Source: an uncultured Candidatus Saccharibacteria bacterium (GTDB lineage: Bacteria > Patescibacteriota > Minisyncoccia > Phycocordibacterales > PALSA-1337). From it: a DNA stretch of 64,000 bases. The stretch spans positions 10,248-74,247 of the forward strand of contig CAYIYK010000003.1 of NCBI GenBank assembly GCA_964367745.1, in the 5' to 3' direction. The notes beneath the pieces were generated by a model that saw nothing but the letters and a program-made list of their open reading frames with translations, was not told the DNA's origin and ran no database searches. Within the stretch, counting starts at the first letter, position 1, and every line of letters begins with the position of its first letter. Made by a program: the position numbers and the translations under genes. Below, in pieces: positions 8,820-60,768 of this stretch.

Positions 8820-8830
8820 TATAACAGATA

Positions 8831-10471
<1,641 letters not shown>

Positions 10472-20724: not shown

Positions 20725-22957
20725 ACTTACCTTCTTCTATTTGCTTTATAGCCTCATCTACTTGAGACTTTATAAGTGGGAATCTTTCTTTTGCTTTCTT
20801 TAGAAGTTCAATCGCTTGGTATTCTTGTTTACTCAATAGATAAACATAAGCTAGAGATGAATATACTTCTTGATTGTCTTGATCTTTAGCTAATATCTTC
20901 TTATATATTTCAATAGCTTTATCGTACTGTTTTGACAATACATAAGCATTTATAACTCTTGGATCGCTGAATACTTCGAAATCATCTCCAAATAGCTTCT
21001 TCGCTTTTACTTCTTCACCTGCCGTTATAAGAGCTGTAACGTAAGTAGTCTTGGCGATTGGATTGTCTGTTGCTGATTGATACGCTTTGTCTAATATCTC
21101 AACTGCTTCTTTATTTTTACCGATATTTAGATAGTTGACGGCTAGTTCAAATATTATACTTTGCTTGTTTGGAGAAAGTTCATTTGCTTTTTCAAGTAGT
21201 GGTGTAGCTGTATTAAAATCTCTTATAGTATCATAATAACTTCCACCAATAATATATATTCTTGCATCATTCGGAGTTTTCTTTATTTGATTTTCTATTT
21301 CTTTCTTTGCCAAATCGTAGAATGCAGCCTTTTTATCTTGTTGCATTTGTGGATTTTGTATTACATTTGCTGAACAATTTAATAGTTGCTCAACCGACTC
21401 TTGATTTGCAACTGTCTGTCTTAGTTTGAATATTTTTTCAAATGGTACTACTGATACTGTTTGAGGATTTGAACAAGCTATAAGTGCATTTATAAGTCCT
21501 GTATTCGCTTGTATAGCGCGCACATTCACAAAATACATTGAAGTAATGAATAAGATAACAACAACAGGTACATATACATAATCTCTTACTGTTTCAGCAT
21601 CTTCAGATATTGATTTGCTGTAATTTTTAAATATAAATAAATCTTTATTCTTTCTTAATGAATGAACAAAAGCGAGCAATGTAAAGAACATTACATAACT
21701 TGTTTGATTGTCGAATACGAATACATTGTGTATTGCATATCCTACCAATAGACCGATAAGTATAGATTTTTCACCAATAGTTTTTTCACTTTTAATGATA
21801 AAGATTAGAGAGATTAAATATAGAGCTAGATACGCAACTAATCCTAGTATTCCTCCGGCAACAAACCAATCTAGGAAAACACTGTGTGCTCGATCAAACC
21901 ATTGCTCATGTCTCCACATTTCAGGATTGTAATGTGAATTGAATATATAGTTAAAGTTCTCTTGCCCAACTCCGATAATTGCTGTCTTTGGGCTCTCTGT
22001 AATTCCCTTTATAGCCATAGGCCAAATAAATCTTCTTGCTTGAGTCTTTGTATCTGAAATAGATATAGAAGCCAATCTTCCCAATACTTCATTCTTTTGA
22101 ATCCAACTAGCATTTCTATTGAAATAAAATAGTGTACCGATAACAACTACTAGTAGAATAACTGAACCAGAAACTACTCTACTTATATTTGATTGACCAC
22201 TACTCTTTCTACCAAAAATTGTATAAATAGCACATGAAGCAATAATAGCAATCGTCCAACCTATGATAGTTCCTCGAGTTGCTGTTTGAAACATTATAAA
22301 AGAGAAAAATGCTGCGGCAATAGCATATGAATAGAACAAATGCTTCTTTGCAAAATAACTTATAGCCAAATATCCCGCAATAAATGCATTAAATAACATA
22401 TAAACCGCCATGTATGCAGAGTTACCTAGAGATGCATCGACTCTACTTCCTTGATGTGTTTCTGCCCAACCGAAAAACTGTGTTAGACCGTAAAGTGCAG
22501 TTATAAATCCAGAAACAATTACAACATTGAAAAACTTATGCCAACTCTCTTTTGTCTTAAGTACTGAAGATAGAACCATGAAATAACCCCAAAGGTGTAT
22601 TATCATCAACCAACCTTCCATTCTTTCGAAGTTTGACCAAATACTTCTAAGTGGATTTAGACCAGCTAAGTCAGCAATCAGAGCAATAAGAGTAAATATA
22701 CCTATAGAAATAGATATTGCATTGCATCGCGGAAGAACACTTCTATCTGTTCCGACAACACTAGTGCCTCTTTCTCTGAAAACAAGAATCAGCCATAGAG
22801 CAAAGACAATTTCAACAATTATTCTAAAAGCGAATCCTTTACCAGTGATGAATGGAAAGAATAAAGAATTAACGACGTAAGTTGGGATAAATGGGATTAC
22901 TGCTAAACCGATAATAATTGCGTATTTGATTAAAGTATTTATTGTTGCATTGTTCAT
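20711..22957 (-). CDS. O-antigen ligase-like (Wzy_C) polytopic membrane protein with C-terminal TPR repeats
   Basis: 748 aa. About 12 N-terminal TM helices include a large periplasmic loop typical of Wzy_C/O-antigen ligase/PglL-type proteins. The C-terminal roughly 250 aa are TPR-like (AYVYLLSKQEYQAIELLKKA...). Confidence 0.6.
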   Translation of the reverse strand: MNNATINTLIKYAIIIGLAVIPFIPTYVVNSLFFPFITGKGFAFRIIVEIVFALWLILVFRERGTSVVGTDRSVLPRCNAISISIGIFTLIALIADLAGLNPLRSIWSNFERMEGWLMIIHLWGYFMVLSSVLKTKESWHKFFNVVIVSGFITALYGLTQFFGWAETHQGSRVDASLGNSAYMAVYMLFNAFIAGYLAISYFAKKHLFYSYAIAAAFFSFIMFQTATRGTIIGWTIAIIASCAIYTIFGRKSSGQSNISRVVSGSVILLVVVIGTLFYFNRNASWIQKNEVLGRLASISISDTKTQARRFIWPMAIKGITESPKTAIIGVGQENFNYIFNSHYNPEMWRHEQWFDRAHSVFLDWFVAGGILGLVAYLALYLISLIFIIKSEKTIGEKSILIGLLVGYAIHNVFVFDNQTSYVMFFTLLAFVHSLRKNKDLFIFKNYSKSISEDAETVRDYVYVPVVVILFITSMYFVNVRAIQANTGLINALIACSNPQTVSVVPFEKIFKLRQTVANQESVEQLLNCSANVIQNPQMQQDKKAAFYDLAKKEIENQIKKTPNDARIYIIGGSYYDTIRDFNTATPLLEKANELSPNKQSIIFELAVNYLNIGKNKEAVEILDKAYQSATDNPIAKTTYVTALITAGEEVKAKKLFGDDFEVFSDPRVINAYVLSKQYDKAIEIYKKILAKDQDNQEVYSSLAYVYLLSKQEYQAIELLKKAKERFPLIKSQVDEAIKQIEEGKFRTP

Positions 22958-24431: not shown

Positions 24432-26312
24432 TTAAAATTTAAATCCTTTTTTCTTTAATTCTTTTAACATGTACTCTGTGATAATCCAATCAAGTGGATA
24501 GTCTATATCTATAGATCTCTCTTTTGGTACTATATACCCTGCAATCTTATCTCCATATAACCTCTCTTCTTTCATAATCAAATCTCTTCTCATACAATAT
24601 ATTGCTGCACTTCTCTTGTATGCTACAGGTAGATCTTGTCTTCTTGTACCTTCTACTTCAGGAACAGAATATGCACTGATGAAGTCACCTTCTAATTTTT
24701 TAATCTTAATTGGATTTACATTACTTGGTACTTCAACTATTGATACTGCACTATCTGCTTTTGTATCTATAAGTTTTTGAATTGTTCCATCGATATCGTC
24801 TATAGTTCTAAAAGGTGAAGTTGGCTGAAGAATAACTACATAGTCGATAGTGATATTATTTTTCTTTTCATAAAAATCTATTGCATGTTGCATTACAGGA
24901 AGATGTGGAGTTGAATCTAGAGCCAATTCTTTTGGTCTCATAAAAGGTACATCTGCACCATACTTCTTACACACATCGGCAATCTCTTTGTCATCTGTTG
25001 AAACGATAAGATGATTTATCAATTTACTTTTCTTTGCAGCATCGATTGTATATGCAATAAGAGGTTTATTGCCAAGTTTCTTTATATTCTTACCCGGAAT
25101 ACCTTTTGACCCTCCGCGAGCTGTAATAACGCCAAGGACGTTTGGAGTTCTGTATTCCCTATCTACATGTTCTTCTGTAAGCGGTTCAAATTTCTTTATA
25201 TCTTTTATTATTTTTTTATCCAAAATATCATGGAAAAGATTCGAGAAAATTCCATTTAGATGAAGTCTTGGTCTCATAGCGTAAACCATATCACTCGTGA
25301 TTATTGTTCCAGCTTTAATATCTCTTGAAGCAACGAGTGTTTTGTTGAAATAAGGTCTAAACTTATTTTGTGCACCTTCCAATTCTTTTTCCTTTTGACC
25401 GTAGAAAATATTTGTATCTATTTTCTTATATTCATTTTTCTTAATACCAGAGACCAATTGTTTCATTTCTTCTGGAGTTACTGAAGCTTTATGGTCTGAA
25501 CCCCAAAGGCCTCGGTCTAGAGAAAAGTGTTTCTCTATAACCTGCGCACCCATTTTTACTGCAGCTAAAGGAATAGTATTATCTCCAACTGAATGATCAG
25601 AAAAACCGATGATCGCTTGAGGGTATTTTTCTCTAAAATATTCTATAGTAGAAAGGTTAAAAGCTTCTGGAGGACATGGATATTCACTAACGCAATATAG
25701 AATAATAATTGGTGACCCACGCTTTGTTATATAGTCAACAACGTCATCCAACTCTTTGTGACTAACCATTCCTGTTGAAATGATTATTGGTTTTTGTGTC
25801 TTTGTAATAAAGTCCAAAAGAACATGATCCTGAACATCACCAGAACCTACTTTCCAGAAAGGTACATCTAGATTCTCAAGCTTAACCGCTGCCATTCTAG
25901 ACATCGGAGTTGAGAAGAATATAATTCCCTTTTTTTCTGAATATCTTTTTATCTCTTTGAAGAATTCTATAGGTGCTTCTTCAGTATTTCTTTTAACCCA
26001 AGAATATCTATCACTGCCTTTGAAGTGCGGAGAAACTACATTTATATTTGCTTGTTCATCTTCAACTTCATGAGTTTGAAATTTCACAGCATGTGCACCA
26101 GCTTTTACTGCTTCGTCGATAAGCTTTTTTGCATTTTTAATATAGACTTTTAGAGGTTGAGACTCTTGTGTTTGTATAAAATTCTTACCGATTTCAGCAA
26201 TAACAAAAACTTTATCTTTTGATATGATCTTAGAGATAGCGTGAGGTTTCACTATTTTTGAATTTTTGTTCTTACTGGCTTTAGAAGATTTAACAGACTT
26301 TTTTGTTTTCAT
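24432..26312 (-). CDS. neuBA: Bifunctional nonulosonic (sialic) acid synthase NeuB-like + SAF domain + CMP-nonulosonate cytidylyltransferase NeuA-like
   Basis: The N-terminal roughly 330 aa match NeuB/PseI/LegI: VIAEIGKNF, KFQTH, FFSTPMS, KVGSGD, IIGFSDH, EKHFS, and the SAF segment KTLVASRDIKAGTIITSDM. The C-terminal roughly 230 aa match CTP_transf_3/NeuA (LGVITARGGSKGIPGKNIKKLGNKPLIAYTIDAA). A Lys-rich N-terminal tail is present. Confidence 0.8.
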   Translation of the reverse strand: MKTKKSVKSSKASKNKNSKIVKPHAISKIISKDKVFVIAEIGKNFIQTQESQPLKVYIKNAKKLIDEAVKAGAHAVKFQTHEVEDEQANINVVSPHFKGSDRYSWVKRNTEEAPIEFFKEIKRYSEKKGIIFFSTPMSRMAAVKLENLDVPFWKVGSGDVQDHVLLDFITKTQKPIIISTGMVSHKELDDVVDYITKRGSPIIILYCVSEYPCPPEAFNLSTIEYFREKYPQAIIGFSDHSVGDNTIPLAAVKMGAQVIEKHFSLDRGLWGSDHKASVTPEEMKQLVSGIKKNEYKKIDTNIFYGQKEKELEGAQNKFRPYFNKTLVASRDIKAGTIITSDMVYAMRPRLHLNGIFSNLFHDILDKKIIKDIKKFEPLTEEHVDREYRTPNVLGVITARGGSKGIPGKNIKKLGNKPLIAYTIDAAKKSKLINHLIVSTDDKEIADVCKKYGADVPFMRPKELALDSTPHLPVMQHAIDFYEKKNNITIDYVVILQPTSPFRTIDDIDGTIQKLIDTKADSAVSIVEVPSNVNPIKIKKLEGDFISAYSVPEVEGTRRQDLPVAYKRSAAIYCMRRDLIMKEERLYGDKIAGYIVPKERSIDIDYPLDWIITEYMLKELKKKGFKF

Positions 26313-26348
26313 ATGTTATATCCTATGCTATTTAAAAATTTTTGCAAC

Positions 26349-26380
26349 AAAAAAAATCCACCCAGTAAAACCAGGTGGAA
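26349..26380 (-). terminator. Rho-independent terminator for the GC-rich methyltransferase gene (minus strand)
   Basis: On the minus strand the stem ttccacc...ggtggaa (26357-26380) is followed by T8 (26349-26356). It lies between the methyltransferase stop (26409) and the neuBA start (26312). Confidence 0.55.
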
Positions 26381-26408
26381 ATTGTGTTGAGTGTTCAGTA
26401 CTCGAAGA

Positions 26409-27347
26409 TCAAAGCCTGCGAGCGGTGACCACAACCGACGGGTGGTATGCGGTAAAGTTGAGGAGATTCTGGTCTGCCTCAAAAACGCTACGGATTCCAA
26501 TACCAACAATCTTGAGCTTGTCCTCAATCGGAAGCTTGTCGAGCGGTTCCCAACGGCACCAAGTGGCCCAGGCATTGCGAATGAAATCGACGATTCGACT
26601 CCCAACAACAGGAACGAGGGTTTCATTCACACGGAAGATCTCGAAACCATTTTGCTCGAGAGCAGACTTGAGATCAACAAGCGAGAATGCCTTTGCTTTG
26701 GGTGCCCAGAGATTTTCGCGAGTGAAATCAGGATACTTTGACCGAACATAATTGTAAGCTGCATCGTGCGCAATCCTATAAAGCGGATGCGAGAGTTCGG
26801 TTGTGATCTGATCCGGCCCCGGCTCAGACTTTGACCGGAAATCGTGCAAATTGCACTTCCAATCCGAATAATTGGACGGACCGAAGTCAAAACTGAGAGT
26901 TCCACGAACCTTGAGGCAAGAACTGATTGCTTTCAAGGAAGCATCGAGGGTATCCCGCAAAAGATGAAACATCTGACAACAGACAGCGGCGTCATGAAGA
27001 CCTACAACATGCCGATCCAGAAATTCCGCTTTCATTGTGTAAGCATTCACCCTCGGATTACCCATCAAATTGAGGAGAAGGAAATGCATCATGCTTTCAT
27101 TCGGCTCAACAGCCGAAACGAGCGCCTTCGTCCTCTTGAGAATAACTGCTGTACTGACACCAGTGCCGGCGCCAATCTCCAACACTGAATTGATTCCATT
27201 TTTGTTGGCTTGAATCGCCTCACTAACAACGAATTCAGCCATTTCAGTGTAGTATTTGTCACGACCATTGAAGGCCGAGTATGCTGCGCCGACATTCCCT
27301 TCGAAGAGTTTCGAACCGAGGATTGCACTAACATTACTTGTACTCAT
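26409..27347 (-). CDS. Class I SAM-dependent methyltransferase encoded by a GC-rich (~48% GC) island, probably horizontally acquired
   Basis: 312 aa containing motif I LEIGAGTGVSTAVIL. GC content is sharply elevated relative to flanks of about 30% GC. The high GC produces many spurious overlapping ORFs on both strands in the six-frame track. Confidence 0.7.
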   Translation of the reverse strand: MSTSNVSAILGSKLFEGNVGAAYSAFNGRDKYYTEMAEFVVSEAIQANKNGINSVLEIGAGTGVSTAVILKRTKALVSAVEPNESMMHFLLLNLMGNPRVNAYTMKAEFLDRHVVGLHDAAVCCQMFHLLRDTLDASLKAISSCLKVRGTLSFDFGPSNYSDWKCNLHDFRSKSEPGPDQITTELSHPLYRIAHDAAYNYVRSKYPDFTRENLWAPKAKAFSLVDLKSALEQNGFEIFRVNETLVPVVGSRIVDFIRNAWATWCRWEPLDKLPIEDKLKIVGIGIRSVFEADQNLLNFTAYHPSVVVTARRL

Positions 27348-27523
27348 TTTTTTAAGAACTGCATCATGACTTTATTATCATGATTTTCGTTTAATCTATA
27401 ACATATTATTGTAAATTTAGCAATAGTACGATATTTAAATATTAAACTATAGAAAATAATTGACGTAATACTTTTTTAATGATATTGTATATTAAATTTA
27501 AACAAACAGTTCATTAAAAAAAT

Positions 27524-28477
27524 ATGACAGCAAAAAATGTTGGAAATTGGCAAAAATGGGCCTTCTTGGAAGGAATAACAAGGACCTTATCAAGGACTCT
27601 ACAAAAAGTTGTTGGTTCCGTATCTAACAACTGGGAGAATACCCTACTAGCTGCCGGCATAATCGGTTTTGTTCAAGTTCTGTCAGCTGTAATCATTACA
27701 AGAAAGACGAAAGAAAAACTTCTGTGTGATCCAGCAGGAATCATCGGCTGTTTGATTTTTGGTCTTATAGCTCTAGTATGTACTGTATTAGGCTTCGCAA
27801 CTTTCCTTTATGGAGGAGATATTACTGTTAGTACTTTTATCATTGCCCTGTCCATCATTCCAAGTATGATAATCGACATCGTCTTCTTCAACTACAAATC
27901 TAGTCGTAGAGAATGGATTGGGATTTTTGTGGCGGTTATAGCTGGTTGGGCAGTTCTAGACTTCCCAAACTTAGCTAGCATGCTTAAGTTGCCTATGTGG
28001 GTAGGCCTTTCATTCATCACCATGATCCTTGTGGCAATAAATCAAGGAATCACACAATCAATCAAAGATATTTCCCCGATGTTCAAAAACTTCTGGGGTG
28101 GTATGGTGGCACTAATACTGTCACCAGTTATCATGATCGTGATTGGCAAAGGTGGATTCTTACTCAGTTTCCCAGATAATAAAGTACTATGGTTTACCTC
28201 AGCTATGATTGGGATCATAGTGATAGCCATATGGTCTTTCAACCTTCTGAGCTACAAGGACGGTGCGAGTATCGCATTAAAAAAACTTGTAGTAAGTAGT
28301 ATTTACTTTATCAGTACCACGTTTCTTGGAAGCATCGTATTTAACGAAGCAATGACTGCTGGGAAAATTATTGCAATCCCTCTTTTTATTATTTCATACT
28401 TCCTTATGAGTAAGGAAGCCTACAATTTCGTACTAGCGAAGCGGATACCGAAGTGGATAAAGTGGATATTGAAGTGA
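27524..28477 (+). CDS. Hypothetical polytopic membrane protein (about 9-10 TM; possibly DMT/EamA-like transporter)
   Basis: 317 aa and highly hydrophobic throughout. No catalytic motifs were recognised. Confidence 0.45.
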   Translation: MTAKNVGNWQKWAFLEGITRTLSRTLQKVVGSVSNNWENTLLAAGIIGFVQVLSAVIITRKTKEKLLCDPAGIIGCLIFGLIALVCTVLGFATFLYGGDITVSTFIIALSIIPSMIIDIVFFNYKSSRREWIGIFVAVIAGWAVLDFPNLASMLKLPMWVGLSFITMILVAINQGITQSIKDISPMFKNFWGGMVALILSPVIMIVIGKGGFLLSFPDNKVLWFTSAMIGIIVIAIWSFNLLSYKDGASIALKKLVVSSIYFISTTFLGSIVFNEAMTAGKIIAIPLFIISYFLMSKEAYNFVLAKRIPKWIKWILK

Positions 28478-36478: not shown

Positions 36479-37828
36479 TTAAATAATTTTTCCTAAAAAA
36501 TCGACATTTCTCTTATAAGACAAACCGTCTCTAAAGAAAATAAAATCATTGAATACTTTCTCTTGTTGCTTCTTTTTTACATCGTGATTTTTCAAACAAA
36601 TATTAACATGTTCAACGATATTATCGAAACTCTTTGAGAGAAAAACTGCATCAGCATCTACTATAGGTTTATAGTGACGGAAATTGTATGCTCTATGATA
36701 CTTTTCTGGATAATCTATATTTACAACTGGTTTTCCGAAGATAAAAGATTCAAGGGTCATTGTTGAAACGTAGTTTATAACTACATCAGAATATTTTAGA
36801 GTTAATTTTAGATTCAAAATATCATCTTCATGTATTTCAATTCTTGTACCCATTTCTTGTGAAAGTAACTTGCCTGGATATTCAACATGGAGATTTGGAA
36901 TTTTACTATCAATATATACTTTGAACTTATCAAACTCTTCTTTTGGATGCATTCGCACTAGAATATTGGGTTTACCATCGAATTTGCCTTGATCACGAGC
37001 TTTCAATAGTTCACCAAGAAGAATATCTTCATCAGGGTAATTCCCCTTTGTAACTGTAGTTATAAGTATTGTTTTTTCTTTTGGATTCAATCCTTTACTC
37101 AAAAGGAACGCTTCTCTAGACTGTTCACTTGGATTGTTTACAGAATAAGAGTCGAAACGCATTGTACCTGAGACAAATACATTATCTTCTGAATATCCAT
37201 ATTCTTTAACTGCGGTATTTTTTATTATTTTATTCCAAACGATTAGATAATCTGGTCTTCTAAAATGCATTCCTCCATTGTGAAGATTGTCCCAACTGAA
37301 GTTTACTGCAGCAGTCTTTATACCAAACTTCTTAGCATATATTATTGCTTCAGCATCAGGATGACTGAAGCCAGGAGTTGCTGTTAGAAACATAACTGGG
37401 TTGTATTCTTTAATCTTTTCTTCAAGAGCCTTTGATCTTGGTATAAAAATTTTCTCAAGTTTAGTAAATAAATCATTTGTCCAAAAAGATGCAGGGGCAA
37501 TGTAAGAAAAATACTTCAAAAATCTTCTTCTCCAATCCTTCATCCCCTTTTCTTTATTTCTTACAACCACTGGTTCAAAATCGTATTTACGGATTATTGA
37601 ATATCTAAAATATTTACCAAATAGATTCCAAAATCCTGGATTTTGTAATTTCCAAGGAACATAAGTCACATTTTCTGATTTAAAATATGGTTTATTATCT
37701 TCACAAAAAGCTTGTGGGGACATAAATACGACTACTTTGTATTTTGTTGATAAATACTTTATATAATCTGTACGCAAAAAATCTGATGAGTAAACAAAGT
37801 TCGAAATAAAAAGAAATATTGTTTTCAT
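36479..37828 (-). CDS. Surface-carbohydrate biosynthesis transferase-like protein (paralog 3 of 3); ORF extends to 37873, paralog-supported start MKTIF at 37828
   Basis: It shares the MKTIFLFIS start, the NFSWDNLHNGG block and the (I/V)W/FN motif with the other two paralogs. Confidence 0.45.
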   Translation of the reverse strand: MKTIFLFISNFVYSSDFLRTDYIKYLSTKYKVVVFMSPQAFCEDNKPYFKSENVTYVPWKLQNPGFWNLFGKYFRYSIIRKYDFEPVVVRNKEKGMKDWRRRFLKYFSYIAPASFWTNDLFTKLEKIFIPRSKALEEKIKEYNPVMFLTATPGFSHPDAEAIIYAKKFGIKTAAVNFSWDNLHNGGMHFRRPDYLIVWNKIIKNTAVKEYGYSEDNVFVSGTMRFDSYSVNNPSEQSREAFLLSKGLNPKEKTILITTVTKGNYPDEDILLGELLKARDQGKFDGKPNILVRMHPKEEFDKFKVYIDSKIPNLHVEYPGKLLSQEMGTRIEIHEDDILNLKLTLKYSDVVINYVSTMTLESFIFGKPVVNIDYPEKYHRAYNFRHYKPIVDADAVFLSKSFDNIVEHVNICLKNHDVKKKQQEKVFNDFIFFRDGLSYKRNVDFLGKII

Positions 37829-37873
37829 AGAAAGGTATTGTAGCATATATGTTATAATCCTTATTATTACCAC

Positions 37874-40389: not shown

Positions 40390-41814
40390 GTGATAACCAT
40401 ATATAATCTTAAAAAATACAATTTTATGAAAAATATATCCAAAAAGGCTTTCATTATCATATTTTTAATAATCGTATCCGTAAATTTCCTTTATGCTATA
40501 TCATATAAAATAAAACCAGCTGTAGATGCTGAAGCATATGATGAAATAGCGACAAATATCGTTGAACACGAACAGTACAGATCGAGCTTTAACGTTCCTC
40601 TAGAACTTGATGGTTCAATATCAAGAATCGGTCCTGGATATGAATTGTTCTTAGCTACAAATTATCTATTCTTTGGAAAACATTTTTGGATTATTTGGTT
40701 ATTCCAAGCAATACTTTATGCTTTGACTATTGTAATGCTTGGCTTGATGAGTCTAAAGTTATTCCCTGTTTTAAATCAAAACACAAAAATCCTTTATGGT
40801 TCGATGATTGTCTTTGGTCTACTTATCGATATTATTCAGTTGAATGCAATGATAATGACCGAATCCCTTTTCCTATTTCTTCTAACTCTTTCTTTCTTTA
40901 TTTGGTCACAAATTTACAATCATGATCCAAAGATAAAATATGGACTGTGGATTATCCTTGGTTTCGTCTTGGGATTGTTAACCCTTACAAGACCAACAGG
41001 TCTTCTAGTTTTTGTTTTATTAAGTGGAGCAACTATATATAGGAAAAAACTTGGTTCAATACTTGCAATATGCCTTATTGCTATTCCTTTTATCTTAATC
41101 CAAGTTCCTTGGTTTGTAAGAAATTATCATGTATATAATCAATTCATTTTTCACTCTAGTGCTGATGGTCTGAATTTCTTAAGTGGCAACTATCCCGGTA
41201 ATCATGGAGAATTTACTTCTGATTTCCCTTTTTATAAAGAATTAAAAGAGAAATACCCATCCCCAGTAGAATTAAATAGTGAAGCAAAGAAGTGGTATAA
41301 AGATTTTGTATTACATCACCCTATTCAAGCTACAAAAATACTAATTGAAAAAGCTTTAATATTCTTTTCACTTACCAAAACTTCTGGCTTTTGGTTCCAT
41401 TATTTTGGAAAGACTGATCAGATACTTACGATCCTCATATCAATATTTCAAAACTTTATAATACTTGGAAGTATTATATTGTATGGAACGATGGTTGTTA
41501 AAAGATGGATAAATAAACAATTCCTTCTACCAGACATATTCCTTGCTTCAACTTTTGTAGTATTAACAGTAACTCCAATAATTTCAGTTATAGCAAATAG
41601 ACATAGACTTCCACTAGTTATAATGTCTCTGCCTTTATTCGTCTATGTTGCATATATAATAAAAAATAACTTTAGAAAAATGAAATGGGAAATCGCTATT
41701 ACGATTCTTATCCTTATCGCAAGTACAGGTTTTGATCTATTCTTACAATTCGATAAATTCAAATCAAAGATACATTCAGTGAATAAAAATCCAGCAGAAA
41801 CAGTAACTAAATAA
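40390..41814 (+). CDS. GT-C fold membrane glycosyltransferase (ArnT/PMT/GT39/83-like)
   Basis: 474 aa, polytopic. The Asp-containing first periplasmic loop (PAVDAEAYDEIATNIVEHEQY) resembles GT-C DE/DD motif regions. Confidence 0.5.
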   Translation: MITIYNLKKYNFMKNISKKAFIIIFLIIVSVNFLYAISYKIKPAVDAEAYDEIATNIVEHEQYRSSFNVPLELDGSISRIGPGYELFLATNYLFFGKHFWIIWLFQAILYALTIVMLGLMSLKLFPVLNQNTKILYGSMIVFGLLIDIIQLNAMIMTESLFLFLLTLSFFIWSQIYNHDPKIKYGLWIILGFVLGLLTLTRPTGLLVFVLLSGATIYRKKLGSILAICLIAIPFILIQVPWFVRNYHVYNQFIFHSSADGLNFLSGNYPGNHGEFTSDFPFYKELKEKYPSPVELNSEAKKWYKDFVLHHPIQATKILIEKALIFFSLTKTSGFWFHYFGKTDQILTILISIFQNFIILGSIILYGTMVVKRWINKQFLLPDIFLASTFVVLTVTPIISVIANRHRLPLVIMSLPLFVYVAYIIKNNFRKMKWEIAITILILIASTGFDLFLQFDKFKSKIHSVNKNPAETVTK

Positions 41815-41817
41815 TTT

Positions 41818-43476
41818 ATGATTAAGAAAATTATAAAACACCCATTAAGTTATATATTACTTTTTGCTTTTTTAATTCGTATAGTAATGATCAAATACGG
41901 TTTGCCATTCTGGCTATACAATGACGAACCACCTTTTGTACTTACAACACTGAAGATGTTCCAACTAAAAACACTGTTACCAGTGTTACATGAAGCTGAT
42001 TTCAAGCCTTTCATGTATTACCCTCCTTATATTAGTTATCTATATATTCCCTTCTTTTTATTTTCTATAGCACTATCATGGATTGGTTTTGATGGAAACC
42101 TTAGTGAGTTACAGAATGTCTTGGCTAGTGATCCTTCTATATTTTTCATAACAGCGAGAGTAATAATGATTTTTATTAGTATATTAACAATTTATTTAAT
42201 ATATAAAATAACTCAATCATTAACTCAAAGTAAGACAGCATCACTTTATTCTGCAATCCTTTCTTCAACAAGTTTAATGTTTATAAGTCTTTCAATCACA
42301 GGCAAACACTGGGTACCAATACTTTTCTTTTATACACTTTGTCTTTTTATACTTACACGTCCGAATTGGTCTATTAAAAAGAGATATATATTGTCAGCAG
42401 TTACTATTGGTATCGGAACTGGTGTAGGTACTGTGGTGATTCTTTTTTCAGTTGTTATTTTCCTTTGGTATATAACGTACGATAAAGTAAGTATGAAAGA
42501 AAGTTTGACTAGCTTACTTATGTACAAACTAGGTTTTATCGTAGTTATTTTATCTTTTATTCCAGTTCTTCTTTATCCTGCAAGTCTTGGTTTCGTACCA
42601 GACACAACATTACATGGAGGTAAAACTCTTTTAGGATTCATAACTAGTCCTTTTGTCTTTCCATTCCCTTTTATCGCCACGGAACCAGTTTTGGTATTAC
42701 TTAGTCTTATTGGTTTATATCTCGGTTTTAAAAAATACAAACCATTCTATATAACATCTATCATTTTTACAGTGTTTTACAGTATGATATTCTATGTATT
42801 TTTCAGATTCGAATACCGTTTCCTTTTACCTCTTGTATTGTTCTTAATAGTTGGATCAGCAATAGGAATAAATGAGATTAGGAATAAATACCCAAACAAA
42901 TATTCTAAAGCATTTATTTATCTAATTCTTCTAATCCCAATATTATTCTCTTTGAGACTTAGTTATCTTGGTTATGTAAATGATTCAAGAATAAAAGCAA
43001 AAGAATGGTTGAATGCCAATACCGAAGCTGATGACAAAGTTATCGTCTATGCAAACCTTATGAGAATAGCGAATAATAAAAATGGAATATTGGAACAAGA
43101 ATTCATCGATTCTAGATCATTGAGGACAAATGATAAAAACATGTTGAATATTCGAGACGGTTTGATAAAAGAGAAGACATTCCACGCTTTAAATCTATAT
43201 ACAGTTGAGAACGACAATTTCTACAAAATGATTGATGTTTATGCAAAAAAGAATGGCTATAAATATCTAATATTTAGTAAAAAAGATTTCTTAGATAAAT
43301 CTGAACAGTTTGAGTATGTTAAAAATCTTACAAAAGATGCTAAACTTATGGCAAGCTATGGTAATAATGAGAGTAACTATTCCCTATCAAAAACAGACAT
43401 TGGACCTAATTTATTACCTTTCTTTAGAATAAATGAATTCGGACCAGAGATAGAGATATATAAATTGAATAACTAA
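41818..43476 (+). CDS. GT-C fold membrane glycosyltransferase (ArnT/PMT-like), second copy with soluble C-terminal domain
   Basis: 552 aa with about 11 N-terminal TM helices and a first loop reading LYNDEPPF. The roughly 170 aa C-terminal domain is hydrophilic. Confidence 0.5.
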   Translation: MIKKIIKHPLSYILLFAFLIRIVMIKYGLPFWLYNDEPPFVLTTLKMFQLKTLLPVLHEADFKPFMYYPPYISYLYIPFFLFSIALSWIGFDGNLSELQNVLASDPSIFFITARVIMIFISILTIYLIYKITQSLTQSKTASLYSAILSSTSLMFISLSITGKHWVPILFFYTLCLFILTRPNWSIKKRYILSAVTIGIGTGVGTVVILFSVVIFLWYITYDKVSMKESLTSLLMYKLGFIVVILSFIPVLLYPASLGFVPDTTLHGGKTLLGFITSPFVFPFPFIATEPVLVLLSLIGLYLGFKKYKPFYITSIIFTVFYSMIFYVFFRFEYRFLLPLVLFLIVGSAIGINEIRNKYPNKYSKAFIYLILLIPILFSLRLSYLGYVNDSRIKAKEWLNANTEADDKVIVYANLMRIANNKNGILEQEFIDSRSLRTNDKNMLNIRDGLIKEKTFHALNLYTVENDNFYKMIDVYAKKNGYKYLIFSKKDFLDKSEQFEYVKNLTKDAKLMASYGNNESNYSLSKTDIGPNLLPFFRINEFGPEIEIYKLNN

Positions 43477-51775: not shown

Positions 51776-52757
51776 TATTCTCCCAACTATGAACCCAATT
51801 AAACTTCTTTACCTTATCTGCTTGTATTTTTCTATTCTTAGGGTCAGATATCCAGACAATCTTTTCGACTATATCATTTTTATTCATTGGATCTATAAAA
51901 ATCGCGCAATCTTTTACTCTATCTGATATACCATTCTCTTTTGTAAGAATAAAAGGAGTACCAACTCTTATGGCGTCAAAAATCATATTTGGACTTATAT
52001 CGCCAATCGAATTTAAAATCACCGCATAAGATCGTCTCATTCTCTCTTGGAAATTATCATAGACTGCTTTTGTAGTATCGAATTCTATATCTTCAAAACC
52101 TTTTTCTTTGACTTTATCCTGAGCAATTTTAAATGAACTCTTTAACAATTCTAGATTCTTCCACTTCAATTCTCTTGTACCAGCAACAAAAACTCTATTC
52201 TCTGGCTCTATTTGTTCATCTCTTTCTCCACAGAAATTCTCAACGATCATATTCTTTTCTGAATCAAGTTTATATACTTTTTCAAAAATATCTCTTTGCC
52301 ATTTTGTACTAAATATTATTGCTGAAGCATTCCTCATAGAATCACCTCCAACTTTAAATATTACTTTTTCTTTTTTAGATAGCTTATTAAGTGATGTATT
52401 ATAGAAATTTTTAAATAAAACCAAGTCTCCTGTTCTTTCAACATAATTTTCCCATAAGAAATCTCCTCCAGTTCTTATGATGTATTTTTTCCTCATAAGC
52501 TTGCAGGCATACATAGTAGGTACTGCTGCACTCCATGTATCAAGTACGAGTATCAAATCCGCATTCCATCCTTTTCTAAAAATCTTTAGAAAAAATAAAA
52601 AGTGTCTGAGGAATTTTGGGAATGCTCTCTCCCAACGATATGCAGCAACTTTTACATCATGACCCTGCTTTTTCCAGGTTTCATAAAGATTTCTAGCATA
52701 TTGAGCTGGACCACCAATATCTGGTGGATATATTCCTGATGAGATTAGAATTTTCAT
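51735..52757 (-). CDS. Glycosyltransferase family 4
   Basis: 340 aa. The N-terminus MKILISSGIYPPDIGGPAQYARNL matches Glyco_trans_4. Confidence 0.65.
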   Translation of the reverse strand: MKILISSGIYPPDIGGPAQYARNLYETWKKQGHDVKVAAYRWERAFPKFLRHFLFFLKIFRKGWNADLILVLDTWSAAVPTMYACKLMRKKYIIRTGGDFLWENYVERTGDLVLFKNFYNTSLNKLSKKEKVIFKVGGDSMRNASAIIFSTKWQRDIFEKVYKLDSEKNMIVENFCGERDEQIEPENRVFVAGTRELKWKNLELLKSSFKIAQDKVKEKGFEDIEFDTTKAVYDNFQERMRRSYAVILNSIGDISPNMIFDAIRVGTPFILTKENGISDRVKDCAIFIDPMNKNDIVEKIVWISDPKNRKIQADKVKKFNWVHSWENIGNEIISIYERIK

Positions 52758-53944
52758 ATTACCTTTAAGAATACCTTATTCTTCATATCACTTGCAATGA
52801 GGTTCCATTGATACTTTCTTTCTACCATATCCAAAGCATTTTTGACTATTTTCTCTTTTAAACTCTTATCATTTAAAAGCATTTCAACTTTCCAAGCTAT
52901 GCTCTTTGGATTTTTTACTTCACACAAAAGGCCTGTTTCTCCATCTTTAAGAAAATCTACTATTCCTCCAACCGGTGTTGCTATAACAGGAATTCCAGCA
53001 GCCATCGCTTCTATATATGAATTACCAAAACCTTCAGACAAAGATGGTCTTATGAAAATATCTGATACATGGAGATATTTTGGCATATCTACATGTTTAA
53101 CAAAACCTAAGAAGATCACTCTGTTATCGAGATTTAATCTCTTAGTTCTTTGCTTTAGCATTTCTTCTTCATGACCTGTACCCAAGACAAGGAATTTAAC
53201 ATTTTCTGGTAGATATGTTAGAGAATCAATGATATCTATAGTTGCATTTTTCTCAACCAATCTACTTGTAGTTACAATAAAAATATCTTTATCTTTTTTA
53301 TTCAGACTCTTTTTTAAATCATTAAATTCATTTTCATTTTTTCTATTTGAAAATAGAGAAAAATTCACGCCATTTGGTACAACAACAATCGGTGAACTTG
53401 CTCCCATATTTTTTGACCAGGTTGATAGGAAATTTGATATTACTTGAACAATATCCGCCTTTCTAAAAATCCTCATGAAAGATGATTTGAATATTCCTTG
53501 GCGAATCTTGAAGTTATCACCTTCTTGTATTGAAAGTACAAATGGAATATTTGGATTGAATATTTTAAATAAATAACCAGCAAAACCAGCATAACTTGCC
53601 ATCATTGACCATACTAAATCGTATTTATTTTTTCTATTTAGTTGTAGTGCCTTTATAAAAGCAAAAACTGGAAAAGTTAGTTTTGATAATGGGAATATCT
53701 TTGAACTTTTTGTATTACTACCAAACCAAGGCATACCAGCTCTATATACATTTATATTCCCTATTCTTTCAAATTTAGGAGCCTGTTTTCTTAAGGTTAT
53801 CATATCGAATTCCATATCAGACGGAAGGATACGATCAGTAATTTCTTTAATCGCTATTTCTGCCCCACCTATGAATCTTGGATAGTAAACTAGCGAAAAA
53901 ATGAGTATTTTCTTACTTTTTTGTTCATTTTTTACTTGTTCCAT
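52754..53944 (-). CDS. Glycosyltransferase family 4
   Basis: 396 aa containing the GT4 signature EGFGNSYIEAMAAGIPVIATPVGG. Confidence 0.7.
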   Translation of the reverse strand: MEQVKNEQKSKKILIFSLVYYPRFIGGAEIAIKEITDRILPSDMEFDMITLRKQAPKFERIGNINVYRAGMPWFGSNTKSSKIFPLSKLTFPVFAFIKALQLNRKNKYDLVWSMMASYAGFAGYLFKIFNPNIPFVLSIQEGDNFKIRQGIFKSSFMRIFRKADIVQVISNFLSTWSKNMGASSPIVVVPNGVNFSLFSNRKNENEFNDLKKSLNKKDKDIFIVTTSRLVEKNATIDIIDSLTYLPENVKFLVLGTGHEEEMLKQRTKRLNLDNRVIFLGFVKHVDMPKYLHVSDIFIRPSLSEGFGNSYIEAMAAGIPVIATPVGGIVDFLKDGETGLLCEVKNPKSIAWKVEMLLNDKSLKEKIVKNALDMVERKYQWNLIASDMKNKVFLKVI

Positions 53945-53948
53945 TTTA

Positions 53949-55823
53949 TTACTTTACCTTAAGTACATCACGAAGTACATCTTCAGGAACCTCTCTTTTT
54001 GTGTCACTTTTTTCGTGATGATTAGCATGACTTTTATGTATTTCATTTGGTTTATGGTCACTTGAAGTATTTTGATGATTCGAATGATTTGAACCATCTG
54101 AATCTTTTTTTACATGCTCGTCCTTATGTGCCAAAACTGATGCCAAAGCACTCTTTAATTCATTTATTCTTTGTGGATGTGCATCTTTATGATGATTATG
54201 AGCCTTAGGTGTATTTGTTAGAGAATTCAGAGATACAGACTTTAACTTAGGAAGATTTGGTTGGGGTTTTGGATAATTTGATTGTTGCACATGATTTTGG
54301 ACACTTGGCTGTACAGGTGCTTGGACTGATTGTTGAGGTGGTTGCTGAATAGGCTGTTCTGCGACAATTGGCTTTGGTGGAGGTGGAGGTATATGTGCAG
54401 GTGCAGGTGTGGGTGCAACTGTAGCTACTGGTTTGGGCGGTTGTGTATTTGTTGCAGGAGTACTAGAACCATTCTGAGTAGAATTCGAAGCGGTAGATGC
54501 ACCGGGCGTAGGATTCTTTGGAGTTACAACAGGCTTTATTGGTGCAAGCCATTCTTCGATTTTCTTTTCTACTTCTGGTCTCTTACTAGCAAACTGTCTT
54601 CTTGATTCTTCAATCACAGCAAGAGCATTGGACTTCTCTGGTAAAGGAATGGGTGGCAATGTTGTAGCAGAAAATGGTGATGAACTTATACCATCAATCA
54701 TCAGTTTCAAATATATTTGAAATATTCCGAGATTAACAATATCTTCAGCGGTGAACTGTGGTGCGAATTCTTTTTCCAAAACTTCTGCATCATAAGCGCC
54801 AACACGGAACACGATCATTGTTCCAACGTTTCCAAAAACCGCAGCTCTAACCTCTTCTTCCATTTGCTCTATATACTGGTGAGCCATAGTAAGATTCAGT
54901 TTATATTTTCGAGCTTCAGAGAGAATATCTGCAAAAGATTCATTTGCAAATGATTGGAATTCGTCTACGAATAGATAGAAGTTTGGAAGTTTTTTTATAA
55001 CATTATCTGACACATCAGCACGAGAAAGTGCAGCGAGATATATCTTGGTTATTATCATTCCACCCAAAAGATTTGCATTCGATTCTCCGATTCTTCCTTT
55101 TGATAAGTTAACTATAAATATCTTACTCTTATCCATCATTTCACGGAGATTGAAAGATGATTTTGGTTGACCGATCATATTTCGTATCAGAGCATTCGCA
55201 GTGAACTGACCGATTTTATTTTGTATTGCAGGAACAGCTTCGGCAGCCATTCTTTCTGTATAGTTTGCAAATTCTTGTACCCAGAATGATTTTACTGATG
55301 GATCAGTAACACAGGCCACTACTTGCTTCCTGAATTCTTTATCAGAAAGCATTCTATTTACCCCAAGCAGGGTTGCGTCAGGATATTCAAGTAAAGCCAA
55401 AAGAGTATTTGTAAGAATATACTCCATTCTCGCTGACCAAGCATCTTGCCAGATCTTTTTGAATGTACTCATAAGACCAGATACAACTAGATGTCTTTTG
55501 TCATGATCAACGTTTTCAAGTACGTTGAATGATATAGGATAGTCCATATCAAAAGGTGCAAAATACACAACGTCTTGTCTTCTATTCTCAGGAATATATT
55601 CTAGTAGCAATTCCGCTGTCTTACCGTGAGGGTCGAGGAAGGCCATACCTTCCCCATTTTTTATATCTTGCACAGCCATGTTTTCAAGTAGAGTAGATTT
55701 ACCCATACCTGTCTTACCGATCACATAAACGTGCTTTGTTCTATCTTTGGCTTTAATACCAAAACTTACCTTTTTATTTCTGGCATCAGTTTGACCAAAA
55801 TATGTAATCTTTTCTTCATTCAT
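53949..55823 (-). CDS. Soluble VirD4/TraD/TraG-like (type IV coupling-protein-like) P-loop ATPase with Pro/Gln/His-rich low-complexity C-terminal tail
   Basis: 624 aa. Walker A is HVYVIGKTGMGKSTLLENM, followed by the FLDPHGK block. Walker B is FYLFVDEFQSF. The ARKYKLNLTMAHQYIEQM block resembles the T4CP/TrwB region. No N-terminal TM segment is present. The last roughly 200 aa are low complexity. Confidence 0.55.
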   Translation of the reverse strand: MNEEKITYFGQTDARNKKVSFGIKAKDRTKHVYVIGKTGMGKSTLLENMAVQDIKNGEGMAFLDPHGKTAELLLEYIPENRRQDVVYFAPFDMDYPISFNVLENVDHDKRHLVVSGLMSTFKKIWQDAWSARMEYILTNTLLALLEYPDATLLGVNRMLSDKEFRKQVVACVTDPSVKSFWVQEFANYTERMAAEAVPAIQNKIGQFTANALIRNMIGQPKSSFNLREMMDKSKIFIVNLSKGRIGESNANLLGGMIITKIYLAALSRADVSDNVIKKLPNFYLFVDEFQSFANESFADILSEARKYKLNLTMAHQYIEQMEEEVRAAVFGNVGTMIVFRVGAYDAEVLEKEFAPQFTAEDIVNLGIFQIYLKLMIDGISSSPFSATTLPPIPLPEKSNALAVIEESRRQFASKRPEVEKKIEEWLAPIKPVVTPKNPTPGASTASNSTQNGSSTPATNTQPPKPVATVAPTPAPAHIPPPPPKPIVAEQPIQQPPQQSVQAPVQPSVQNHVQQSNYPKPQPNLPKLKSVSLNSLTNTPKAHNHHKDAHPQRINELKSALASVLAHKDEHVKKDSDGSNHSNHQNTSSDHKPNEIHKSHANHHEKSDTKREVPEDVLRDVLKVK

Positions 55824-55875: not shown

Positions 55876-57444
55876 TTAATTATGACTGTATATTGTATAT
55901 AAATTATCACTATATACCCTCTTCAAATTTGAGTATTTTAATAAATCATTTCTATTATCCTGTATTACATATTGAATATCGTATTTTTCTAGATTTTTTA
56001 ATATCCTTTCTTGTGTGTTTGAACTCATAACATCATGAATTCTCTCTGGCTTTGATATCCACTGCCCCGCATATAATGTCCAAAAAACATAATTTCTTGA
56101 ATAAAGCGGTATATATTGTGAAAGAGATTCCGGTGCCATAAATATTGAATCTTTAGAATTCGACTTTATCCAATTAAGTATGGGGACATATCTTTGAACA
56201 TAAATAGTATAATCTAAAGAGTTTTTATATGAATTAATTTGAATCAAAATAGAATTAAAAATACAAAGAATAGACAGCAGGTATATTATTGCAATACAAA
56301 TTTTTGATTTTATATTGTCAGACAGAAATTCCTTTATAAAATAGACTATTGAGATAACCAAGACTGGACTGAATACATACATTTCGAAATGACCATATTG
56401 CATTATAAGTCCAGTTATAACATGTTCATTTCTAGTTAGAAAACAAGCAGATATTAGGCCTGAAATAAATATAAATTCATCATTAATAATTTTATTCTTC
56501 TTATAAACCAAAAAGAGCAGCGTAGAACAGACTATAAAAATTGATATTCCAAACAAACTAACATCAGGAATATGACTCATTCTTAAATATTCATGTGGGA
56601 TGGTTAAATAGTACTCATGAGACATTAGATTCACAATCTGATAAAAGACTGGAATAGCCAATATTATACCTACTGATAAACTGACAACAAGACCCTTAAG
56701 TCTGTCAAATTCTTTTCTAAAAAAATAAATCCCAATAAAAACTAGATTTAACACAGTTAAATATGCATATGTAAAGAAATAAACATAGAATGACAAACCA
56801 AAGAAAATACCGAGGATGATATACCACAGTCTAGTATTCTTTTTAATTGCTAAATACAAAATATTTAAATATAAGAAAAAATACAAAGAACTGAATTGAG
56901 GATTAACAGGTCTAGAGAATATAAGGAATTGATCCTCATCAGTTACAAACCTAAACAGATTCAATAAATCATGAATATTTAACAGATCAACGAAATTCAA
57001 GAGATTATACCCAAGCACAATAAACAGTGACCCGAGTATAGATATGTGAATATTCCTAGTAATTCTATCGAGCAGCAAAAAAGACAGAAGGAAGATAATG
57101 ATCGGCAACACAAGTTCGTACAAAATCTTTAAATCCAGCGTATCTATACTTAATATGATACCTGGCAGTGCCAATATCATAGACGAAATAGATGAATCAA
57201 AGTGTGGGAAATTATAGCCATACTCTTTTATAAAAGGATTACAATTAAACGTACAACCCATGTATGCTCCTTGAATTTTATTCAGATATAGTGACTCTGC
57301 ATCGGTATTCATTATTGGTATACCACTAAAGTTAGTACTGTGAATAAATAAAATATTTGGCAATACATAAATAACACCGCAAACTAGAGAGATGATAAGG
57401 ATCGATAGAAATTTCTTAGAAAACATAAATAAATTATACATCAA
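55876..57444 (-). CDS. Hypothetical large polytopic membrane protein (about 12-14 TM) in the pilus operon
   Basis: 522 aa and very hydrophobic, with a hydrophilic roughly 120 aa C-terminal domain. No recognisable motif was found. It lies immediately downstream of the pilin gene on the same strand. Confidence 0.4.
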   Translation of the reverse strand: MMYNLFMFSKKFLSILIISLVCGVIYVLPNILFIHSTNFSGIPIMNTDAESLYLNKIQGAYMGCTFNCNPFIKEYGYNFPHFDSSISSMILALPGIILSIDTLDLKILYELVLPIIIFLLSFLLLDRITRNIHISILGSLFIVLGYNLLNFVDLLNIHDLLNLFRFVTDEDQFLIFSRPVNPQFSSLYFFLYLNILYLAIKKNTRLWYIILGIFFGLSFYVYFFTYAYLTVLNLVFIGIYFFRKEFDRLKGLVVSLSVGIILAIPVFYQIVNLMSHEYYLTIPHEYLRMSHIPDVSLFGISIFIVCSTLLFLVYKKNKIINDEFIFISGLISACFLTRNEHVITGLIMQYGHFEMYVFSPVLVISIVYFIKEFLSDNIKSKICIAIIYLLSILCIFNSILIQINSYKNSLDYTIYVQRYVPILNWIKSNSKDSIFMAPESLSQYIPLYSRNYVFWTLYAGQWISKPERIHDVMSSNTQERILKNLEKYDIQYVIQDNRNDLLKYSNLKRVYSDNLYTIYSHN

Positions 57445-57495
57445 AAAACACCCTATGGGTGTTTTTTGATGTAACCGTATTGTTACCAGATTGTA

Positions 57496-60381: not shown

Positions 60382-60768
60382 CTATTTTTTAATATTTGAA
60401 CAAATCTTCTCAACTTCAGACATAACTTCAGAAGGAATTGTGGTTGCTTTTATTATATAACCATCAACATTCAAAGCTTTTGCTCTAGCAATATCATCAG
60501 GAAGACCTTGATTTGTTAGCATGATTATAACTGATTTCTTTACCAAACCTTCTTTTCTTAGATTTGAAAGTAATTCGATACCATCCATTCCTGGCATAAC
60601 AATATCTAAAAGTAGAATATCAGGTTCCAATCCATCTCTTATTAACTTCAACGCTTCTTCTGTATCTGCTGATGTGTGGACGATAAAATCATTCTTTGAA
60701 AACTTCAGAGAATACATATCGAGTAGAAACTTGTCATCATCTACAAAAAGTATTGAGCGTTGTTTCAT
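60382..60768 (-). CDS. Standalone response-regulator receiver (CheY-like, PilH/PilG-like)
   Basis: 128 aa. The REC fold shows ILFVDDD, the acceptor Asp in ILLLDIVMPGMDG, and a conserved Lys (IIKAT). There is no output domain. Confidence 0.8.
   Translation of the reverse strand: MKQRSILFVDDDKFLLDMYSLKFSKNDFIVHTSADTEEALKLIRDGLEPDILLLDIVMPGMDGIELLSNLRKEGLVKKSVIIMLTNQGLPDDIARAKALNVDGYIIKATTIPSEVMSEVEKICSNIKK

Follow-up and report, generated by a model that had tools for sequence, protein, structure and literature searches.

A soluble VirD4-like ATPase beside a type IV pilus cluster in a Saccharibacteria genome: family, neighbourhoods and candidate partners

What is the role of an ATPase that resembles the coupling proteins of type IV secretion systems (T4SSs), lacks their membrane anchor, and is encoded beside a type IV pilus cluster? 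The question is raised by a stretch of 64,000 nucleotides (hereafter the window) from an uncultured Candidatus Saccharibacteria bacterium (contig CAYIYK010000003.1, positions 10,248 to 74,247, assembly GCA_964367745.1), which carries on its minus strand, at 53949..55823, an open reading frame (ORF) of 624 amino acids (aa) with similarity to VirD4/TraD-type coupling proteins (T4CPs). A prior sequence-only reading of this DNA placed the gene inside a pilus operon and proposed a motor cooperating with the pilus in natural competence or in delivery of substrates to a host cell. The analysis described here retains the family assignment and leads away from the pilus. The gene product is most likely a translocation motor that is T4SS-independent and membrane-proximal, and would represent a solitary, soluble form of a Patescibacteria-wide family from the VirD4/VirB4 branch; we put the probability of this interpretation at roughly 0.55.

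Family assignment and predicted fold

The ORF begins with ATG and ends at a stop codon at 53949-53951 (minus strand, as for all features of this gene given below). Residues 1-425 (54549..55823) make up an ATPase module, in which a RecA-like nucleotide-binding core is accompanied by an inserted helical domain, and the four motifs on which the first description relied are all present in the translation: Walker A (GKTGMGKST, residues 36-44, 55692..55718), VYFAPFD at residue 86, Walker B (FVDEF, residues 285-289, 54957..54971) and ARKYKLNLTMAHQ at residue 304. In an alignment of 28 relatives with 44-74% identity, G36, G39, G41 and K42 of Walker A are invariant, as are D287 and E288 of Walker B and further Arg and Gln positions; the protein is therefore expected to be an active NTPase. 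The reported absence of an N-terminal transmembrane (TM) anchor was likewise borne out, and an artefact of start-codon choice is excluded, since no segment reaches TM-level hydropathy (the 19-residue Kyte-Doolittle mean peaks at 1.34, with none at or above 1.6) and in-frame stops directly 5' of the ATG make an upstream extension impossible. A promoter scan near the gene gave results no better than shuffled sequence, and the element TGGTAAAAT, seen by eye about 20-30 nt 5' of the ATG, is given no weight.

Profile searches, with Pfam matches judged by gathering cut-offs and NCBIfam matches by curated thresholds, consistently pointed toward coupling proteins. TrwB_AAD_bind (PF10412) scored 36 bits (cut-off 20.5) in a match that continues over residues 24-342, through the helical insertion, followed by T4SS-DNA_transf (PF02534; 35.8 bits, cut-off 20.1) and TraG-D_C (PF12696; 26 bits, cut-off 22). 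The HerA-type family DUF87 was marginally above its cut-off (27.7 versus 23.2 bits), so that all four families named in the sequence-only reading as a check on the assignment were recovered. FtsK_SpoIIIE fell far under its own (12.8 versus 24 bits), and the ORF had no Pfam match to PF00437 or to any other pilus family (PilB/PilT, PilC, PilM/N/O, pilin). In NCBIfam the leading matches, to subfamilies of TraD and to one family resembling VirD4, stayed well short of their thresholds (SXT_TraD, 49 versus 366 bits; TOL_TraD, 43 versus 648; CD1115 VirD4-like, 41 versus 250), while VirB4_CagE reached 23 bits against a cut-off of 643. A profile built from 28 diverse relatives and searched against the PDB retrieved TrwB (2.6e-8) and DotL (1.1e-5) first, then HerA.

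Structure prediction led in the same direction. A full-length AlphaFold model derived from 49 close homologues (67-94% identity) was unusable for assignment of the fold (pLDDT 50) and was replaced by a model of residues 1-430 based on the 28-sequence diverse alignment, which is confident (pLDDT 91.9, pTM 0.90). Between the Walker A and Walker B strands this model places an all-helical insertion (residues ~107-231, 55131..55505), with helices at 107-124, 131-145, 154-160, 162-170, 175-187, 190-208, 211-217 and 226-231, and the insertion is predicted to occupy the site of the all-alpha domain of T4CPs. In Foldseek comparisons ~430 columns aligned with TrwB-deltaN70, all-alpha domain included (TM 0.61-0.65), with Cag-beta (0.63) and DotL (0.58) also matched and HerA lower; the C-terminal domain of VirB4 and the C-domain of DptH were found as well, and identity to solved structures is just 12-15% throughout. 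We accordingly place the ATPase, from its sequence profiles and modeled structure, in the VirD4/VirB4/DptH branch of the FtsK-HerA superfamily, and judge coupling proteins to be its closest relatives because the profiles and the full-length fold coverage, helical insertion 107-231 included, agree.

Resemblance to the T4CPs (TrwB of R388, VirD4, F TraD, Cag-beta, DotL/IcmO) thus extends to the P-loop core, Walker A and B, and a helical insertion in the same place, but the window ATPase differs in having no N-terminal TM domain and, among the window ORFs scanned, no T4SS or relaxase genes nearby. Unlike VirB4, it lacks the VirB4 N-terminal domain, and profiles favor T4CPs; FtsK/SpoIIIE and HerA belong to the same superfamily, but the FtsK gamma domain and the HerA N-terminal barrel are both missing. 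The top-scoring single profile was PADLOC mad8 (PDLC04140; 55 bits, E 1.9e-15, residues 8-365; HerA models were weaker), which describes a component of MADS that is, similarly, a soluble ATPase of this branch. Together with the fold match to the DptH C-domain, this raises the prospect of an ATPase from a defense system or mobile element, whether a mad8, DptH or HerA relative or the remnant of an integrative conjugative element. We regard this as exceedingly improbable. The seven other mad genes are all missing, and the ATPase, unlike DptH/DndH, is not accompanied by dnd or dpt genes; window scans near the gene revealed no integrase, relaxase, other MADS, Dnd, Sir2 or nuclease partner and no defense island, the Pfam survey of the window having turned up pilus and glycan genes alone, and a PADLOC scan of its upstream neighbor gave no match. 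Defense islands are patchy in distribution, whereas the family examined here has the distribution of a core gene, retaining stable housekeeping synteny over many Parcubacteria lineages and conservation like that of PilB and PilT.

A Patescibacteria-wide family and its candidate partner

Among more than 8000 homologues scored, the best 120 have 64-93% identity, every taxonomically named one is from Patescibacteria, and NCBI labels them 'type IV secretion system DNA-binding domain-containing protein'. When representatives of clusters formed at 50% identity were searched exhaustively, 22,358 matched at E<=1e-3 and 6,054 at E<=1e-30, which, with the four Pfam scores, puts the similarity well beyond chance; family members among the representatives, including the fused forms considered below, show 44-76% identity over residues 1-430; a profile search of a large protein collection with the diverse alignment yielded near-consensus sequences only and did not increase diversity. 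The gene occurs in 80 species-representative genomes (56-91% identity), among them Yonath-, Nomura-, Taylor-, Adler-, Kaiser-, Lloyd-, Niyogi-, Harrison-, Nealson-, Yanofsky-, Uhr-, Buchanan- and Magasanikbacteria, and in all 80 of these species-level relatives the ORF begins at the ATPase domain and is followed by a variable tail. The window gene is an ordinary member of a large, uncharacterized Patescibacteria family. Loci L001-L046 are referred to as the window clade and L091-L170 as the metagenome loci. L034, of the window clade, derives from the Kaiserbacteria chromosome OY969413.1, and L058, which has the split form described below, from the Nealsonbacteria genome CP179887.1.

Conservation within this family is pronounced. 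Identity of the ATPase domain to that of the window is 98.6% in L003, 90% in L005 and 91% in L016, compared with 98%, 88% and 90% for PilB and 99%, 87% and 90% for PilT in the same three loci; the domain is thus as well conserved as the pilus motors and under strong purifying selection. The neighborhoods of the gene are of housekeeping or cell-envelope character, rather than T4SS, relaxase or pilus, and the synteny is that of a core gene. The gene is chromosomal and vertically inherited, in which, as in the strength of its conservation, the window ATPase departs from T4CPs. Three proteins of ~1200 aa (P0229, P0244 and P0256) contain two tandem copies of the ATPase domain with 33-38% identity to the window protein, and the Ala/Arg/Gly-rich composition of P0229 is unlike that of Patescibacteria members; the family thus appears to extend beyond Patescibacteria in duplicated form.

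A candidate partner emerged from the longer relatives. In many cluster representatives the ATPase domain is placed at residues ~300-460 of a longer protein, whose N-terminal part comprises two TM helices and a domain of ~350 aa designated PF26449/DUF8128 in precomputed annotations, from which we take the label. De novo clustering of neighbors singled out a protein of ~400-530 aa that is co-oriented with the ATPase and encoded at position -1 in 34 loci, every one of them from the group with 56-64% identity, and a profile search found the DUF8128 protein at -1 in 35 of the 40 more distant relatives of that group. This separate protein carries PF26449, and over its entire length it can be aligned to the N-terminus of a fused form (E 1e-50). 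Since the same neighbor, a sigma70-region-4/HARE-HTH gene, lies upstream of both versions, the split and fused genes are orthologous arrangements. Fusion in some genomes and adjacency in others, a Rosetta-stone pattern, make DUF8128 the best-supported candidate for a partner of the ATPase; and because a two-TM DUF8128 is fused to the ATPase or directly upstream of it in relatives, it is the likelier explanation of the missing anchor. As a DUF8128 module of ~350-450 aa, such an anchor would differ from the short two-TM stub of canonical T4CPs. Profile searches with DUF8128 against PDB sequences, local Pfam and NCBIfam returned nothing useful, and a full-text search found no paper that mentions it.

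The arrangement is otherwise in the clade to which the window belongs. Neither tblastn nor a profile of DUF8128 proteins detected DUF8128 in the 64-kb window or in the 10-kb flanks of L001-L046, and this clade has lost the adjacency. Of the 72 metagenome DUF8128 loci for which sufficient sequence is available on the downstream side, 56 have no ATPase in up to 6 kb, which together with the DUF8128-free window clade argues that unlinked DUF8128 and ATPase genes are common. A comparison of solitary-DUF8128 metagenome loci with the window by shared housekeeping genes gave no overlap.

Several features of the DUF8128 loci merit separate mention. The sigma70-region-4/HARE-HTH protein, of ~340-360 aa, is encoded directly upstream of DUF8128 in 68 of the 80 metagenome loci, and the same context is seen in L047-L086, L087 and L088; it looks like a conserved and undescribed Patescibacteria gene pair, or triad. 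In DUF8128 loci devoid of the ATPase, the +1 gene belongs in 47 instances to a single conserved family of ~332 aa (YceG/MltG-like by eye), and the usual -2 gene to a family of ~800 aa (leucyl-tRNA-synthetase-like by eye). The small -1 ORFs of the window clade were also considered as anchors and rejected, being neither conserved nor consistently hydrophobic.

Could the ATPase instead be a genuine coupling protein, serving a Patescibacteria T4SS (VirB4, VirB6, TrsD and others) encoded elsewhere in the genome? By sequence its closest characterized relatives are T4CPs, and T4CP genes are sometimes distant from virB4 in conjugative systems. A 2025 survey by Quinonero-Coronel et al. (PMC12102498) describes Patescibacteria T4SSs as widespread and reports 5,713 VirD4-type T4CP homologues of unknown function in 2,918 Patescibacteria genomes, but places only 148 of them near virB4, and it states that the T4CP copy of S. 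epibionticum is dispensable while its T4SS is essential, exaptation being 'not ruled out'. The T4SS cluster of that organism is described as having no recognizable coupling or relaxase proteins (PMC10633639). In the window, as the sequence-only reading had noted, no VirB4 or VirB6 is seen: neither these families nor ComEC matched among the ORFs scanned, and no T4SS or relaxase family occurs in the Pfam-annotated loci of relatives. The conserved partner, DUF8128, is not a T4SS component, and the scores remain far under the NCBIfam thresholds for TraD and VirD4. On balance we consider a coupling role unlikely. The window protein does conform to the homologues of that survey in being VirD4-type, from Patescibacteria, away from virB4 and possibly exapted; what is added here is the anatomy of the family, namely DUF8128 in fused, split and unlinked forms, a soluble solitary form, clade-specific C-terminal peptides and the sigma4/HARE-HTH neighbor, none of which text searches of the survey showed to be described there.

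The C-terminal peptides just referred to lie in the tail. Relative to the core, residues 425-624 are enriched in Pro (15.5 versus 3.8%), Gln (7.5 versus 3.5%) and His (7.5 versus 1.2%), and the linker proper (residues ~426-610, 53994..54548) is predicted from composition and from pLDDT below 50 in the full-length model to be disordered. The initial description of a Pro/Gln/His-rich tail of ~200 aa was thus accurate as to composition, but not in regarding it as low-complexity throughout, since it includes two conserved peptides. One, within the linker (residues ~532-565, 54129-54230), is a putative helix-forming segment in which L532, L535, L556, A559 and L560 are conserved among 49 relatives, with a helix predicted at 551-565 in the full-length model. 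The other, KREVPEDVLRDVLKVK, forms the C-terminus (residues 611-624, 53952..53993); its consensus among 49 homologues is KEVPEDVLRxVLKVE, corresponding to a clade-specific motif [KE]E[IV]PE[DE]VL[RK]x[IV]LKV. In relatives whose ORFs are complete, the tail measures between 56 and 367 aa. A peptide of the EVPEDVLRxILKV type is found at or near the C-terminus in most window-clade loci and in P0262, a protein with 44% identity. In its place, ILKPG[DE]xIxF ends all 11 of the metagenome ATPases that adjoin DUF8128, and it is also terminal in many GTDB loci and in some fused forms. The type of C-terminal peptide tracks gene arrangement, DUF8128-adjacent or window clade. Recruitment through the C-terminus is established for the contact of TraD with TraM and for the adaptors of DotL, and by analogy with the extensions of TraD and DotL, which likewise end in a conserved peptide, that of the window ATPase may recruit a partner. 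In its overall plan, with a motor, a long linker rich in Pro and Gln, and an anchor in the membrane, the system is also reminiscent of FtsK, with a different order of domains.

From these features a tentative mechanism can be outlined. By extension from other members of the branch, the ATPase would assemble into a ring on the cytoplasmic side of the membrane and act there as a motor powered by NTP. In the window lineage it would reach the membrane, or its client, not by an anchor of its own but by docking through the long disordered Pro-rich linker and C-terminal peptide, for which the leading candidate dock is a DUF8128 protein whose gene would lie in another part of the genome. The substrate would be macromolecular, with DNA the most likely guess in view of the ancestry of the family and the sigma4/HARE-HTH gene beside DUF8128. 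Several considerations weigh against this account. The oligomeric state, membrane association, substrate and partner are all inferred; an unlinked DUF8128 in the window's own genome is no more than plausible; the window clade carries a C-terminal peptide unlike that of the DUF8128-adjacent forms, which could signify a different partner altogether; and the 4-bp coupling of the ATPase to a glycosyltransferase operon, described below, is left unexplained.

A broader and more speculative possibility, advanced here only tentatively, is that these genes specify an undescribed membrane machine found throughout Patescibacteria, independent of both T4SSs and pili, in which a two-TM DUF8128 anchor, a T4CP-derived ring motor and the sigma4/HARE-HTH protein would act together; in the window clade the genes would have become dispersed, with the motor finding its partner by way of a newly evolved C-terminal peptide, EVPEDVLRxILKV. 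Such a machine might serve, for instance, as a device for DNA translocation, segregation or uptake in ultrasmall cells. A large part of bacterial diversity belongs to Patescibacteria, and although their genomes are very small, this ATPase is retained in them with a conservation equal to that of the pilus motors. The role of orphan coupling-protein homologues, left open by the 2025 survey, can now be tested with concrete partners and constructs, and caution is warranted in annotating such genes as conjugation or pilus components.

The pilus neighborhood

The minus strand of the window encodes, in order, PilM/N/O-like proteins, PilB, a receiver-only response regulator, PilT, PilC, pilin, a 522-aa multi-TM ORF, the ATPase and glycosyltransferases. 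The ATPase gene is co-oriented with the pilus genes, as first described, but is not contiguous with them: it lies 1.7 kb from the pilin gene and 52 bp from the 522-aa ORF upstream of it, and both this ORF and a terminator-like hairpin intervene. The hairpin (57437..57473, minus strand) has a perfect 17-bp stem, a 3-nt loop and a U-rich tail, lies 22 nt past the pilin stop, and is predicted to be strong (dG -24 kcal/mol, z -5.45; none of 200 shuffles folds equally well). It likely marks the end of the pilus transcription unit, and with tight packing of the ATPase on its glycosyltransferase side instead, the proposed location inside a type IV pilus operon is not upheld.

That the ATPase acts as a motor with PilB, PilT and PilC, for DNA uptake or for delivery of substrates to a host cell, would be in keeping with the DNA-translocation ancestry of the family and with the use of type IV pili for natural competence by Patescibacteria (PMC10633639, PMC12857230), as well as with the co-orientation and proximity seen in the window and close relatives. 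When co-occurrence was surveyed, as the sequence-only reading had suggested, homologues of PilB, PilT or PilC were found within 10 kb in only 2 of the 80 species-level loci (L016, with 91% identity, and L067, on the opposite strand). The only further instances are close metagenome relatives (75-87% full-length identity), which have a pilus cluster nearby, but the intervening gene varies, and in L005 it is a PAP2 gene, oriented oppositely and lying between the pilins and the ATPase. Other relatives have other neighbors upstream: at 63-87% identity, and in one relative at 44%, these are a Mur ligase, RsmI and DUF4015, and in the group at 56-64% SecD, SecF, sigma4/HARE-HTH and DUF8128. The gene is thus not syntenic with pilus genes in relatives, an outcome that the sequence-only reading had itself named as refuting its proposal. 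Adjacency to the pilus is incidental and seems to reflect a recent local rearrangement; as pilus genes adjoin the ATPase in a narrow lineage only, a pilus-linked role is not supported, and with the terminator-like hairpin after pilin we consider it very improbable.

The 522-aa ORF (55876..57444, minus strand), between the pilin and ATPase genes, has ~12 hydrophobic segments and matched no Pfam, NCBIfam or PADLOC family. Elsewhere it is present only in L003 and L004, where it is split in two (in L003, at 8382-9948, into ORFs of 128 aa and ~395 aa), and in L016, on the opposite strand. It was considered as a substitute anchor for the ATPase and rejected, since it is confined to this lineage, is broken into two ORFs in L003 and lies inverted in L016. 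Bordering the glycan cluster as it does, it may encode a GT-C-like glycosyltransferase. Its annotated TTG start (57444) falls inside the hairpin stem, and because of this a later ATG is the probable start.

The response regulator in the pilus cluster consists of a receiver alone (128 aa, 60382-60768, minus strand) and is wedged between PilB and PilT, a position it also occupies in L003, L005 and L016 (77-98% identity). This arrangement suggests that the pilus motors are controlled through phosphorylation.

Glycosyltransferases downstream and other features of the window

Four base pairs downstream of the ATPase lies a GT4 glycosyltransferase gene (52754..53944, minus strand; Pfam Glycos_transf_1 and Glyco_transf_4), the first of four packed or overlapping glycosyltransferase genes (gaps of 4, -4, -41, -4 and 1 bp from the ATPase onward). 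From this spacing it is likely that the GT4 gene is co-transcribed with the ATPase, which would head a glycosyltransferase operon. The +1 position is likewise taken by an orthologous GT4 in L001, L003-L006, L009, L014, L019, L021, L022, L027, L030, L037, L039 and L090; among the 40 species-level loci of the window clade the count is about 10. The pair remains constant as its upstream side changes from the pilus (window) to S1 and ABC genes (L090) or DUF4015 (L001). Such persistence, and the ~33-kb glycan cluster of the window, would be expected if the ATPase were a partner of this operon, for example by supplying the energy with which a surface glycan or glycoprotein is exported or assembled. 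However, the GT4 linkage is limited to one sub-clade, outside which the +1 gene encodes a lamin-tail-domain surface protein, pgk, an exonuclease or others; glycan clusters are themselves common and variable neighbors in such genomes; and we know of no member of this ATPase branch that acts on glycans. We therefore judge a role in glycan export or assembly decidedly improbable, and favor the T4SS-independent translocation motor.

In L010, L013, L018, L023, L028, L043, L045 and L049 the +1 gene encodes a protein of ~510-570 aa; three of these, inspected by eye, show an N-terminal lamin-tail-like domain, a Ser/Thr/Ala-rich region and a C-terminal TM helix. This may be a surface protein that replaces the GT4 operon.

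The surface-glycan region of the window (~20700-53950) includes a Wzy_C and TPR fusion (20711-22957), a NeuB and cytidylyltransferase fusion (24432-26312), a UDP-GlcNAc 2-epimerase, two TagF-like glycerophosphotransferases, several methyltransferases, GT9, a Wzx-like flippase, GtrA, GT2 and multiple GT4 genes, along with three large ORFs that have no family match (36479-37873, 40390-41814 and 41818-43476). An Rfam scan of the window detected no RNA family, including in the interval 26001-28000, where GC content rises to 0.40 from the 0.30-0.36 of neighboring 2-kb windows and where overlapping ORFs occupy both strands around 26266-27347.

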